A stretch of DNA of 64,000 nucleotides from contig URSF01000005.1 in assembly GCA_900550445.1 (NCBI GenBank), positions 16,601 to 80,600 on the forward strand, read 5' to 3'. The translations under genes were made by a program, and so were the position numbers. The notes below the pieces were generated by a model. The model did no database searches and was not told the origin of the DNA. It was given only the letters and a program-made list of their open reading frames with translations. Source of the DNA: an uncultured Rhodospirillaceae bacterium. GTDB lineage: Bacteria > Pseudomonadota > Alphaproteobacteria > CAAGCB01 > CAG-977. Below are positions 39,444 through 42,856 of this stretch, piece by piece; the stretch's first letter is position 1; each line of letters begins with the position of its first letter.

Positions 39444-39806
39444 ATGTTGTTAAACGAACTGCCTTCTCCGGCATTTGCGGTAAACAAAGAAGGAAAAGTA
39501 ACGGTTTTTTTGCCGGAACTGGCCGGGGAACCGGAAAATCCCGAAATCAGTTATTTGTTTGACGGAGCTTTGTTTTTCAAACGCATGCCGGGGACGGGGT
39601 GCCCGATTACGGGCGTTCCCGAAGACATTATTGAGCACCTGCATAATTCAGACAAGATGCTGATTATCGAAATGAATCTGGACAAGATTATTGATTTGAA
39701 CGACGGCCGTTTGTCTGATGCGGCTGATGTGTTTAAACGTTATTACGAAGCGGCGGTAAACAAAGAATCGTTTGCGGAAAAAGCAGTTGATGCGATAGAG
39801 GTTTAG
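39444..39806 (+). CDS. Cassette protein A1: small, strongly acidic hypothetical protein (120 aa)
   Basis: RBS GGGAGGG. It has 22 Asp/Glu against 11 Lys/Arg. It is paralogous to 41319..41675, with 80 of 118 positions identical in a gapless alignment done by hand. Confidence 0.7.
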   Translation: MLLNELPSPAFAVNKEGKVTVFLPELAGEPENPEISYLFDGALFFKRMPGTGCPITGVPEDIIEHLHNSDKMLIIEMNLDKIIDLNDGRLSDAADVFKRYYEAAVNKESFAEKAVDAIEV

Positions 39807-39826
39807 ACAAATTTGCTTTTTGTCTA
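39804..39826. promoter_or_regulatory. Palindrome TAGACAAA-N7-TTTGTCTA overlapping the A1 stop codon
   Basis: Read directly from the sequence. The half-site recurs at 39905-39915 and at 17295/17341. Confidence 0.3.
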
Positions 39827-39896
39827 TATATTTTCTGTTTTCGGCGGGAATATCTTGCTTTTCCGCCTTTTTCTTTTTAATTTCTTAAAAAAAGAC

Positions 39897-39926
39897 TTGC
39901 TTTGTTTTGTCTATAACTGCTACTAT
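39897..39926 (+). promoter_or_regulatory. Sigma-70-like promoter for B1 (TTGCTT-N18-TACTAT) with TTTTGTCTATA in the spacer
   Basis: Hexamer pattern read from the sequence, ~40 nt upstream of the B1 ATG. Confidence 0.3.
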
Positions 39927-39963
39927 ATCTTTAATTGTTTCTTTTTAGCAGGGGGCTTCGATT

Positions 39964-41295
39964 ATGTCTAATTTTGCTGCAGTATATGGTTTAGCTCGTT
40001 CAGGGGCCTTTAAGGGGCTGTTTGAGGTGGATTTCAGTTTAAGCGGCACTGTCGCTTCTGCCGTTTATGGGGCGGAAGGCGTCGCGCAGCGTATAAAAGA
40101 CAAACGTAAGGAAAAAGCGGAAAAAGAATGGAACGCTTCTCCGGATCGGTTTGCCGACGCACCTTTCCGCAGTCCGCTGGTCGAAAATTATTTAAAGGGC
40201 GGGGCAAAGTTAGTCTGGAATACGGATCAGGACTGGGAATCTTCGGTTCAGATAACGACAAAAAAAGGCAAAGAAGTTTCTTTTCAGGGAAAAAATCTGA
40301 AAAAAGAAGAGGCCGCGCAGTATCGGAATTTTATCGAAAACAAACTGGAAATGATCGAACCGCCGTCATTTTTAGAAAAACTGATGGTCGCGAATAAAAC
40401 TTTGGCCGCTTCCAAATCAGGAAAAATTGCCGGCGCGGCTTCGCTGGGCATCGTCCCGGCGGCGGTGGGGGTCGTCGCTTTGTCTGCCCGGGCGTATGGC
40501 GCAACCCGCGGATTTGTCATGGACAAGTTAAATCTGAAAAACAAGCCTAAGGATAAAAACAAACAGTCATTTTCAGAACGTCTGGCCGATATTAAACATC
40601 GCGAAGAATACAAAAAAGATCTGAAAAATCTTCCTTATATAGAAGACGTCGTTCGAAAAGTGGAAAACAAAAAACAGGAAAAGCAGGACTTTTTAAATAA
40701 AGAAAACGTTTTAAAGTCTTTGTTGCGTGATCGTGATCAGGTGAAGGCGGGCGTCGCGGCTTCACCGGAACATCAGGATTTAGTTAAAATTTCCGGCCAC
40801 CCTGTTCTGGCGGAATATCTGGACGGTGATTTAACGCTGTCAGTTTCCGCCAATAAAATGTTGTCATTTACCAGACATTATGTCGTATATCAATCAGTAC
40901 GGGACAAAGATCCGCAGGATCTGGAAAAAGGAAAAGGAAGCAGCTGGGAAGCCCAAAGCGGCGCGACTTCGGCCGGCATCGAGCCGTATATGGCGCGTTA
41001 CACAAAGGCTTTGGAAATGATCGAGCCGCCGACAAAAACAGAGTTGACCTTATTAAAACAGCTCTATCAGCTGAATAATTCGGGGCGGGATTCATTGTCT
41101 TCCCGCCAGCCGCTGGTTGAAGCCGTCAGCAAAACGGTTGATTTGTATATGACTGAAAAGAAAAAGGAAAACAAAGATTTCGGAAAAACAAATCTGATGG
41201 CACGTCTGAATGACGTCAGAAAACGTTCCATTATTGATGAACGGCTGCAAAAAATGGTTGATTTGCATTCCGCGCTGAAGAAAAACGGTCGCTGA
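39964..41295 (+). CDS. Cassette protein B1: large Lys-rich hypothetical protein (443 aa) with one hydrophobic segment
   Basis: RBS AGCAGGGGG. It is paralogous to 41702..42856. Shared blocks include 'LEMIEPPSFLEK', 'GKIAG.A.LG.VP.A...ALSARAYGA.R.FVMDKLNL', 'EMI.P.TKTEL' and the C-terminal 'MAR...V.KRS...RL.KM..L...LK..GR'. Confidence 0.7.
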   Translation: MSNFAAVYGLARSGAFKGLFEVDFSLSGTVASAVYGAEGVAQRIKDKRKEKAEKEWNASPDRFADAPFRSPLVENYLKGGAKLVWNTDQDWESSVQITTKKGKEVSFQGKNLKKEEAAQYRNFIENKLEMIEPPSFLEKLMVANKTLAASKSGKIAGAASLGIVPAAVGVVALSARAYGATRGFVMDKLNLKNKPKDKNKQSFSERLADIKHREEYKKDLKNLPYIEDVVRKVENKKQEKQDFLNKENVLKSLLRDRDQVKAGVAASPEHQDLVKISGHPVLAEYLDGDLTLSVSANKMLSFTRHYVVYQSVRDKDPQDLEKGKGSSWEAQSGATSAGIEPYMARYTKALEMIEPPTKTELTLLKQLYQLNNSGRDSLSSRQPLVEAVSKTVDLYMTEKKKENKDFGKTNLMARLNDVRKRSIIDERLQKMVDLHSALKKNGR

Positions 41296-41318
41296 TTATC
41301 TGTTACGGGAGGATATAA

Positions 41319-41675
41319 ATGCTGTTAAACGAAATTCCTTCACCGGCGTTTGCGGTCAACAAAGACGGTAAAGTAACGGTTTTTTTGCCGGAATTGGCCG
41401 GAGAGGCGGAAAAACCGGAAATCAGTTATTTGTTTGAACATTCTCTGTTCTTTAAAAGGACTTCTGATTCCGGCTGCGCCATAACAGGTGTGTCTGACGA
41501 AATTATAGATTATCTGCGCACGGCTGAAAAATGTCTGGTCGTTGAAATAGATTTAGATAAAGTCGTTGATCTTGACGAAGGTAAGATTACGGATCCGGCC
41601 GGCGTTTTCAAGCGTTATTATGAAGCGGTGATCGACAAAGAATCATTTGCCGAAAAAGCGGTAGATGCGATTTAA
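41319..41675 (+). CDS. Cassette protein A2: small acidic hypothetical protein (118 aa)
   Basis: RBS GGGAGG. Paralog of A1. Confidence 0.7.
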   Translation: MLLNEIPSPAFAVNKDGKVTVFLPELAGEAEKPEISYLFEHSLFFKRTSDSGCAITGVSDEIIDYLRTAEKCLVVEIDLDKVVDLDEGKITDPAGVFKRYYEAVIDKESFAEKAVDAI

Positions 41676-41701
41676 AAGATCATAAAAGGAAAGGGCGGCC
41701 G

Positions 41702-42856
41702 ATGACAAATGTTGCGGCATTCTATCTTCTCAGCAGAAACGGAGCTTTCAAAAGGTTGTTTTCGGGGGAAGGAAACGGCGGCGGAGAACTGAATTACGCG
41801 GAACGTTATGATTCTATGCCAAACGGCGGGGATAAGGTTTTGGAATCTTATTTGTCCGGCCACTGCAAAATGAGCCTGTCCGGTTTTTCAAACGTTTCCA
41901 ATATATGGGGTGATACTTTTCGCGCGAATTTAGACGGGAATCTGCCGAAATACAAGCAATACGCCGAAAAACAGCTGGAAATGATCGAACCGCCGTCCTT
42001 TTTGGAAAAAATGATGGTTATCAACAAAGCCGCAGCCAATACAAAGCTGGGTAAAATCGCGGGAAAAGCAACATTGGGGGCTGTTCCGGTCGCTTTGACG
42101 ATAACCGCTTTGTCGGCCAGAGCGTACGGAGCCAGCCGGCATTTCGTTATGGATAAATTAAATCTGCATCAATCTGATAAAAAGTCTTTTTCCCGGCGTT
42201 TGGCGGAAATTAAAAACCGTGAAGGATATAAAGGCGATTTAAAAAAGATTGCAAAATTGGAAACGTTACGGGAAAAAAGCTCTGTCCGGGCGCGTATGCT
42301 GCGGCCGGGACACACCCAAAAAAATGCGGCCGACGCAGAAAATAAGCTGCTTTCAAAGAATGCTCTGCTTGACGCCTATATGAATTTAGACTGGCAAATC
42401 AGCGCGCAGGGAACGGCCGAAGGTGTAGTCGGTCGGCTTCGCGATGAAAACGGAACAATTTTTTGGAATATGTCAGTTGCGGAACCGATCGCGAAAAAGC
42501 TGAATCAAAATCCGTTAAAAGCATCTGATTTAAAAGAAGATTTGGCACATCTGCAAAAAACGGTCGAAATGATAGATCCGTTGACAAAAACGGAATTAAA
42601 GCTGATCAGGCGCATGGAGCGGCTGAAAAAAGCGGAAGATAACAAATTTATCGGCTCACCCGTGTTAAAAATGATTGATAAATCCGTTGAATTAAGCTTG
42701 GCGCTTTATTCTTCCAAAAACAAGGAAGGCAAAGAGCGAAAAGGAACAAAAGGATTTATGGCGCGCATGATTGAAGTTCAAAAACGCAGCGATACGGAAA
42801 GACGTTTGAATAAAATGCGCTCTTTGGAAAAGAAACTGAAAGCCGGCGGCAGATAA
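41702..42856 (+). CDS. Cassette protein B2: large Lys/Arg-rich hypothetical protein (384 aa)
   Basis: RBS AAAGGAAAGGG. Paralog of B1. Confidence 0.7.
   Translation: MTNVAAFYLLSRNGAFKRLFSGEGNGGGELNYAERYDSMPNGGDKVLESYLSGHCKMSLSGFSNVSNIWGDTFRANLDGNLPKYKQYAEKQLEMIEPPSFLEKMMVINKAAANTKLGKIAGKATLGAVPVALTITALSARAYGASRHFVMDKLNLHQSDKKSFSRRLAEIKNREGYKGDLKKIAKLETLREKSSVRARMLRPGHTQKNAADAENKLLSKNALLDAYMNLDWQISAQGTAEGVVGRLRDENGTIFWNMSVAEPIAKKLNQNPLKASDLKEDLAHLQKTVEMIDPLTKTELKLIRRMERLKKAEDNKFIGSPVLKMIDKSVELSLALYSSKNKEGKERKGTKGFMARMIEVQKRSDTERRLNKMRSLEKKLKAGGR

Follow-up and report, generated by a model that had tools for sequence, protein, structure and literature searches.

Type II toxin-antitoxin (TA) systems consist of two co-directional, translationally coupled genes, the first small and acidic in product and the second larger and basic, and orphan copies of the small gene persist when the large one is lost. 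Class I chaperones of type III secretion systems (T3SS; CesT/SycE) are acidic proteins of ∼120 amino acids (aa), encoded beside a larger partner and better conserved than the effector. VirE2 carries a positively charged C-terminal export signal, and the VirE1-VirE2 crystal structure reportedly shows VirE2 to be built of two structurally similar domains. VirE1 of the Agrobacterium type IV secretion system (T4SS) is a small acidic protein, encoded just upstream of and co-expressed with its larger partner, whose self-association it blocks (PMC4513855). Eag proteins (DUF1795) of type VI secretion systems (T6SS) are small chaperones encoded beside prePAAR effectors, whose hydrophobic transmembrane segments they shield before export (PMC7773334). 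Here we analyze a locus of comparable layout in a 64,000-nucleotide (nt) stretch of contig URSF01000005.1 (the window) from an uncultured Rhodospirillaceae bacterium: a duplicated two-gene cassette encoding a small acidic protein, A, and a larger basic protein, B.

Distribution and inheritance of the A-B pair

The initial annotation of the window read this locus as four same-strand open reading frames (ORFs) that form two A-B pairs, with exactly the coordinates that we find:

39444-39806, + strand: A1, 120 aa, acidic, isoelectric point (pI) 4.46 (ORF call)
39964-41295, + strand: B1, 443 aa, basic, pI 9.52, with two homologous ∼170-aa units
41319-41675, + strand: A2, 118 aa, acidic paralog of A1, pI 4.43, starting 23 nt past the B1 stop
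41702-42856, + strand: B2, 384 aa, basic paralog of B1, pI 9.89, starting 26 nt past the A2 stop

Recomputation bore out its gap-free alignment of A1 with A2 (80 of 118 positions identical, 68%; E = 3e-63), as well as the opposite charge of the two proteins, which is evident in the pI values and in the composition of A1 (22 D/E versus 11 K/R). End-to-end identity between B1 and B2 is 33% (E = 9e-53). The similarity of both paralog pairs lies far beyond chance.

The annotation had also recognized no family in either protein, a judgment upheld by every search we made. A1, B1, A2, and B2 had no significant match in Pfam-A 2025, NCBIfam 20.0, PHROGs v4, or PADLOC-DB 2.0 (best E ≥ 0.01, far under the cutoffs), and when 17 diverse B and 16 diverse A members were scanned singly, no family drew a match from two or more of them. 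Searching the PDB by sequence and by profile likewise yielded nothing significant (best E, 0.28 to 1.4). The AlphaFold2 model of A, made from the family alignment, is confident and shows a compact, beta-rich alpha/beta domain (predicted local distance difference test [pLDDT], 86.4; predicted template modeling score [pTM], 0.78); the B1 model has a pLDDT of 75 and a pTM of 0.61. Foldseek found no significant counterpart of A in the PDB (best E = 0.55; template modeling [TM] score, 0.26) or in BFVD (best E = 8.8e-3; none ≤1e-3), nor of B in the PDB (best E = 0.17). PUR-repeat/Whirly-like nucleic-acid-binding modules were considered for B and rejected, the Pur-alpha matches being nonsignificant (E ∼2, TM ∼0.2). 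Source records label A and B only "hypothetical protein [Alphaproteobacteria bacterium]." Both proteins thus represent new families, and the confidently predicted fold of A, which lacks a counterpart in the PDB or BFVD, may be new as well.

A word-indexed search returned 21 B clusters and 19 A clusters. When the B profile was run exhaustively as a hidden Markov model (HMM) against 1.84 billion representative proteins, only 21 reached E ≤ 1e-3; with an A profile that included distant members, the A family rises to 32 clusters. All named sources are metagenome-assembled genomes (MAGs) of uncultured Alphaproteobacteria from human gut, rumen, and other animal guts. The exact A2 sequence occurs on 258 contigs and that of A1 on 174, with sample names that are largely those of human gut metagenomes. 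We found no relatives of A or B on plasmids, phages, or IMG/VR contigs; for this reason, and because PHROGs gave no match and no integrase or transposase was seen within 6 to 10 kb of any locus, an origin from a mobile element or phage was rejected.

To describe the pair beyond this genome, A, B, and a third gene, C, were tallied by HMMs over all fetched loci, with duplicate contigs removed. The co-occurrence noted in the window recurs in ∼18 distinct loci that fall into three clades (loci other than the window are designated by L numbers):

Clade 1, A1-B1-A2-B2: the window, L005, and L010+L012
Clade 1, A1-A2-B2 with a frameshifted B1 remnant: L006
Clade 1, A-B2: L013 and L014
Clade 1, B1-A2, the A1 and B2 slots being filled by small membrane proteins of no relation: L003
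Clade 1, B1-A, upstream flank lost at the contig end: L001
Clade 1, C-B1-A: L008
Clade 1, C-(83-aa B remnant)-A: L009
Clade 1, C-(252-aa short B)-A: L011
Clade 2, A-B with 2- to 3-nt gaps, between GGGtGRT and Flavodoxin_2 genes: L021, L023, L024, L025, and L027
Clade 3, A-B with 1- to 10-nt gaps, upstream of rpoH, a gene for an outer membrane protein (OMP), fliJ/fliI, and ctrA: L022 and L029

All 22 intact B genes have an A gene on their own strand at a distance of at most 157 nt; among intact B genes with sequence visible on both sides, all have an adjacent A. The gap between A and B is 18 to 157 nt in clade 1, the clade of the window, where both orders (A-B and B-A) are found, and 1 to 10 nt in clades 2 and 3. 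The A proteins of the latter two clades share 38 to 45% identity with those of the window (hhalign probability, 99.3 to 99.8%). B is recovered by the clade 1 profile in clade 2 (E = 1e-55 to 1e-59) and in L022 (E = 3e-12); the L029 B was missed by this profile and was recognized only by its architecture and its C-terminal "...MKNGR."

The three clade contexts differ, but all are core chromosome (udp/PFOR, CTP synthase/GGGtGRT, and IleRS/rpoH/ctrA), and synteny is stable within each clade. The clade 1 locus always lies between udp and the OMP/PIG-L pair, although its content is variable. In L006, a frameshifted remnant of the B1 C terminus (…DLYM.EKK…LNDR…; 10364-10727) sits between intact A1 and A2, the mark of a recent deletion of B1 that spared A1. 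L003 carries B1 accompanied only by an A2-type A. In L023 (6001-6960) and L024 (7815-8794), a second pair lies downstream of the Flavodoxin_2 gene and encodes an A' of 112 aa (E = 4e-40), followed by a one-unit mini-B of 187 aa; this pair is an independent duplication, and the mini-B defines the minimal B architecture. A and B are therefore co-inherited, have been duplicated as a pair at least twice, and are translationally coupled in clades 2 and 3, which together strongly implies a stoichiometric functional partnership.

All four genes of the window are real genes under purifying selection. Measured against the orthologous locus L005, the ratio of nonsynonymous to synonymous substitution rates (dN/dS) is 0.105 for A1, 0.134 for B1, 0.012 for A2, and 0.152 for B2, compared to 0.011 for udp and 0.090 for the OMP gene; the B genes are thus the fastest-evolving in the neighborhood, outpacing even the OMP gene. 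A is far better conserved than B, both between paralogs (68% versus 33%) and by dN/dS (0.01 to 0.10 versus 0.13 to 0.15). The duplication that gave the window its two pairs is old, because dS between the paralogs is saturated and because the A1/A2 and B1/B2 types each have orthologs in other species.

Architecture of A and B and possible roles of the pair

Residues of A that are invariant across clades are E5, F11, G17, F22, P24, E25, G28, P33, F45, R47, C53, L66, L73, E76, F97, Y101, and E102, that is, core hydrophobic residues plus a polar set with a single Cys (C53). Such a polar set, which includes C53, R47, Y101, and three Glu residues, would suit a small enzyme or modifier that acts on B or on some other target, as would the persistence of A without B. 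However, A matches no enzyme family or fold, and translational coupling and strict adjacency over a large evolutionary distance argue for a complex; we therefore regard as very unlikely both an enzymatic A and the related possibility that the two genes are merely co-regulated, without contact between their products.

B begins with a conserved short peptide (M-x-N-V-A-A-x-x-L-L...); a Gly-rich stretch often comes next. Module 1 comprises "YL.G.(C)K," a three-strand beta-meander, and a helix ending L-x-M-[IV]-x-P-P-[ST]-F-x-E-K; next come a hydrophobic helix with many small residues (...TLG....AAG..SLAARAYG...) and a basic helix (F..RL.D[IL]K.R...K.D.KKL). Module 2 repeats "YL.G," the beta-meander, and the M-x-x-P-P-T-K-x-E pattern as in module 1, after which come further helices, ending in a second basic helix that closes with K-x-x-x-G-R. 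In B1 these elements map as follows:

40147-40413, + strand: unit 1 module, aa 62-150, "YL.GG.K," beta-meander, and helix ending LEMIEPPSFLEK (alignment, model, hhalign)
40348-40365, + strand: EMIEPP of unit 1 (alignment)
40420-40503, + strand: hydrophobic small-residue helix, aa 153-180, ...SLGIVPAAVGVVALSARAYGA (Kyte-Doolittle, alignment)
40771-41079, + strand: unit 2 module, aa 270-372, "YLDG," beta-meander, and helix ending LEMIEPPTKTEL (alignment, model, hhalign)
41014-41031, + strand: EMIEPP of unit 2 (alignment)

Since units 1 and 2 are homologous (hhalign probability, 97%; E = 9e-11), B is an internal duplication of a ∼170-aa unit, of which the mini-B is a single copy. No His, Cys, Asp, or Ser is among the residues conserved in ≥80% of B members, which argues against B being an enzyme. 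Over its last 30 residues, each member is basic (net charge, +3 to +9), and the Arg at the very end never varies. Small residues of the hydrophobic helix are conserved on one face. This helix reaches a Kyte-Doolittle 19-residue maximum of 2.14 in B1 and of 1.0 to 1.55 in other members; because only B1 exceeds the threshold, we call the segment a hydrophobic small-residue helix and reject B as a bona fide single-pass membrane protein. The helix and the first 35 residues of B are conserved yet have a pLDDT of <50 in the model, as expected of segments whose folding depends on a partner or a membrane. A double-glycine leader in the B N terminus ("...NNSRGG...") was also considered and rejected: on inspection, the hydrophobic spacing is off the leader consensus, and no C39-peptidase ATP-binding cassette (ABC) exporter lies nearby, the ABC genes there encoding double-ATPase proteins with no transmembrane domain match on record.

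Long helices, a repeat architecture, and the lack of catalytic residues are what one might expect if B were a peripheral membrane coiled-coil/repeat protein and A its regulatory subunit in a lineage-specific cell-biological complex (for example, an envelope, division, or polarity scaffold), with no role in conflict or secretion. Vertical inheritance under purifying selection in three core-chromosome contexts and the absence of a link to mobile elements also fit such a complex. We nevertheless think it unlikely, because B is dispensable or degraded in L009, L011, and L006, copy number varies, and a B that outpaces the neighboring OMP gene is more typical of accessory or conflict genes.

The reading we favor, although tentatively, makes A a dedicated holder for a B that is non-enzymatic and directed to membranes. 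We infer that A binds B. The two would form an obligate two-protein module specific to one lineage of uncultured gut/rumen Alphaproteobacteria, in which A, a compact soluble protein, would bind a segment that does not vary among B types, be it the N-terminal peptide, one of the M-x-x-PP turns, or the ...ARAYGA helix. Acting as a chaperone-like partner, A would ensure that B, presumed prone to aggregation or membrane association, stays soluble and inactive in the cytoplasm of the producer until it reaches a membrane. This could be that of the cell itself or, following export, that of a target, and there the small-residue helix of B would drive insertion or oligomerization. The tandem copy would add another B, diverged from the first, for a nearly generic A to serve.

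Three lines of evidence lead us to the holder reading: A is better conserved than B, which is the usual chaperone/substrate pattern; A need not be paired with a B of its own type; and the most conserved segments of B are not placed by the model in the absence of a partner. The second of these, which rests on L003, also means that A probably recognizes features common to all B proteins. We further count in its favor the strict co-occurrence, the 1- to 10-nt gaps, the independent duplication of the pair, the opposite charges, and, for B itself, the lack of a catalytic constellation, the basic Arg-ended tail, and evolution faster than that of its neighbors.

Several observations weigh against a holder. 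The hydrophobic helix lies above the usual transmembrane threshold only in B1, so that membrane insertion is not assured, and the invariant polar residues of A (E5, E25, R47, C53, E76, Y101, and E102) could do more than bind. By profile and Foldseek searches, A has no match to secretion-chaperone (or antitoxin) families or folds, which bears on the chaperone part of the proposal, and no secretion-system genes occur within 6 to 10 kb of any locus, except fliI/fliJ near the clade 3 loci. Finally, A is kept where B has decayed (L009, 83-aa remnant) or been deleted (L006); such outliving of B by A fits a role in antitoxin function or immunity at least as well.

This last point is the core of another explanation, in which the pair is a self-contained toxin/antitoxin, immunity, or abortive-infection-like module, B being a membrane-perturbing, non-enzymatic toxin and A its acidic neutralizer, made first from the same mRNA. 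That no intact B lacks an adjacent A, yet A survives loss of B, is the asymmetry expected if loss of A is lethal. The order of a small acidic gene before a larger basic one, the 1- to 10-nt gaps in clades 2 and 3, and the turnover of the clade 1 udp-OMP interval by duplication, decay, and replacement with small membrane proteins or a DUF6782 gene are all in keeping with it. However, A has no recognizable DNA-binding antitoxin fold; B, at 360 to 440 aa and with no catalytic residues, is unlike known type II toxins; there is no PADLOC match and there are no plasmid, phage, or viral-contig relatives; and inheritance is vertical in three stable core-genome contexts. In addition, an A that is more conserved than B, and whose type is swapped in L003, is unusual for specific toxin-immunity pairs. 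On balance, we consider such a module somewhat unlikely.

A and B might also make up something more novel: a previously unknown kind of two-component system, in which a new-fold acidic A controls a repeat-built, non-enzymatic B that acts on membranes, a host, or a competitor in a way that has nothing in common with described chaperone/effector, toxin/antitoxin, or defense systems, and which is confined to a lineage of uncultured gut Alphaproteobacteria common in human samples. We regard this as improbable.

Transcription signals and surroundings of the locus

The initial annotation treated the cassette as one unit bracketed by rho-independent terminators. We found the following signals:

39379-39416, + strand: hairpin and U-run after udp, resembling a rho-independent terminator (−19.3 kcal/mol, z −3.1)
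39843-39878, + strand: terminator-like hairpin and U-run between A1 and B1, GGCGGGAA...UUCCGCC (−12.3 kcal/mol, z −3.6)
39897-39926, + strand: promoter-like box TTGCTT-N18-TACTAT upstream of B1 (read by eye, consensus resemblance only)
42861-42889, + strand: terminator-like hairpin and U-run after B2 (−13.1 kcal/mol, z −3.6)

Both bracketing hairpins are real in that they fold stably and each is followed by a U-run. A simple consensus terminator scan listed neither of them, possibly, for the udp hairpin, because the scan admits loops of 3 to 8 nt and this loop is ∼10 nt. The description as a single unit stands for the outer hairpins only, since a third hairpin separates A1 from B1-A2-B2. None of 200 shuffles was as stable as this internal hairpin, whose stem is kept in L005 and L010, with a variable loop. 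The block containing the promoter-like box is kept in L005, L010, and L006 (as TTGCTT-N18-TAYYAT), and the box was not listed by the consensus scan. Because of the internal hairpin and U-run, the unit is likely best written as A1 followed by a separate B1-A2-B2 operon; because only ∼27 nt lie between the udp hairpin and the A1 ribosome-binding site, A1 is possibly transcribed by read-through from udp. The spacer hairpin, the box, and the cramped promoter space of A1 together suggest that read-through or attenuation may control the A:B ratio. A known cis-regulatory RNA in the A1-B1 spacer was rejected, as all Rfam matches there were below threshold (best, L20_leader, E = 0.58). Elsewhere, in the spacer that separates udp from a lipoprotein-like gene, a subthreshold Rfam match to sRNA-Xcc1 (38258-38345, − strand; 30.9 bits versus a gathering score of 53; E = 0.021) shares part of its sequence with a terminator-like hairpin.

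The placement of the cassette between housekeeping-type genes, as annotated, holds: the window as a whole is ordinary core chromosome, with ArgRS, SerRS, Tat, Suf, PFOR, udp, RelA, RNase III, Era, RecO, and ParC. G+C content, mostly 0.41 to 0.55 in the window, falls to 0.316 at 33001-34000, upstream of the PFOR gene. Downstream of B2, the 283-aa "OMP" (43309-44160, − strand) itself has no Pfam or NCBIfam match, although one ortholog has a faint match to OMP_b-brl; it is conserved much less strongly (56 to 90% identity) than the genes beside it. Genes unusual for a free-living bacterium lie at 14435-16492 and 26920-30039 and encode a 685-aa He_PIG-repeat protein, a 499-aa A_deaminase/AMP_deaminase, a 136-aa ankyrin-repeat protein, and an N6_N4 methyltransferase with a RAMA domain. 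Host association had been proposed on the strength of genes for an ankyrin-repeat protein, an adenosine deaminase, and PagP; all three are indeed present, but the argument from them is only circumstantial.

In three rumen/gut MAGs, the slot upstream of B is occupied by gene C, which encodes a 266-aa putative metallopeptidase of the DUF6782 family (PF20573; E = 1.3e-23, 83.9 bits versus a cutoff of 27) with the HExxH motif HEARH:

L008, 1810-2610: gene C
L009, 8812-9612: gene C
L011, 8209-9009: gene C

The product of gene C, like B, ends in a basic tail (...LK..RGR[DE]), and the gene is intact even beside the decayed B of L009. There is no copy in the window, and a literature search found no paper mentioning DUF6782. 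A C-terminal signal shared by the DUF6782 protein ("...IIDDRIL...LKNLRGRD") and B ("...IIDERLQ...LKKNGR") was rejected (hhalign probability, 0.5%). In L003, the A1 slot holds a zinc-ribbon/LITAF-like membrane protein (7318-7662) and the B2 slot two small multi-transmembrane proteins (10218-11039), one with a subthreshold match to Phage_holin_3_6 (E = 0.007); with such replacements, the udp-OMP interval behaves as a gene-turnover hotspot.

In L022, a 1,389-aa coiled-coil protein (3484-7653) with only subthreshold SMC, ATG17-like, and ZorA-like matches ends 1 nt before A and may be a third, translationally coupled component in this clade. Recurrent neighbors were rejected as functional clues, because none (this coiled-coil protein, CarboxypepD_reg, GGGtGRT, or Flavodoxin_2) is conserved across clades. 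A flagellar-export link for the fliI/fliJ-containing clade 3 loci was also rejected: the adjacent sigma factor is RpoH rather than FliA and the regulator is CtrA, so that these surroundings are an ordinary core-genome neighborhood.

Comparison with described two-protein systems

The proposal that the cassette is an undescribed system holds for the protein families, which make up a real, duplicated two-gene module, but not yet for a mechanism; the annotation's suggestion of a chaperone/effector or immunity/toxin pair is plausible. A strictly co-inherited, repeatedly duplicated pair that joins a fast-evolving B to a conserved A marks an accessory role on which selection shifts, in bacteria whose biology is hardly known. 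Should B be exported or act on membranes, the pair would offer a first handle on the interactions of these organisms with hosts, protists, or competitors; should the pair consist of a toxin and its neutralizer, it would represent a new class of non-enzymatic toxin. In either case, two genes with recognizable motifs (M-x-x-PP, ARAYGA, and the C-terminal GR) make a compact and tractable target.

Among the systems introduced above, Eag pairs resemble A-B in that a small protein is encoded beside a partner with a hydrophobic segment. However, A has no DUF1795 or fold match, B lacks prePAAR, PAAR, and Rhs, the hydrophobic helix of B is central (aa 153-180 in B1) rather than N-terminal as in prePAAR effectors, and no T6SS genes are near the loci. 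Like T3SS class I chaperones, A is acidic (pI 4.4) and adjacent to its partner in all loci, a feature that is not specific to that family; unlike them, it has no CesT-type profile or fold, and the only related genes in the ±10 kb read around the loci are the flagellar fliI/fliJ of clade 3.

The likeness to type II TA systems lies in co-directional genes, with the gaps of 1 to 10 nt (clades 2 and 3) or 18 to 157 nt (clade 1) given above, and in orphan copies of A. Unlike those systems, A has no ribbon-helix-helix, helix-turn-helix, AbrB, or Phd fold, B belongs to no known toxin superfamily and is three to four times the size of a typical toxin, and the module is immobile and syntenic across species.

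VirE1 and VirE2 have no sequence, profile, or fold similarity to A or B; VirE1 is a ∼65-aa helix and A a 118-aa beta-rich domain, and no T4SS is seen near any A-B locus. Unlike VirE2, B has a hydrophobic small-residue helix and shows no sign of DNA binding. Nevertheless, like VirE2, B has two homologous units and a basic C-terminal tail, and both systems occur in Alphaproteobacteria. The resemblance of A-B to VirE1/VirE2, Eag, T3SS class I, and type II TA pairs is thus one of logic and layout only: both families are new, and their organization is familiar.

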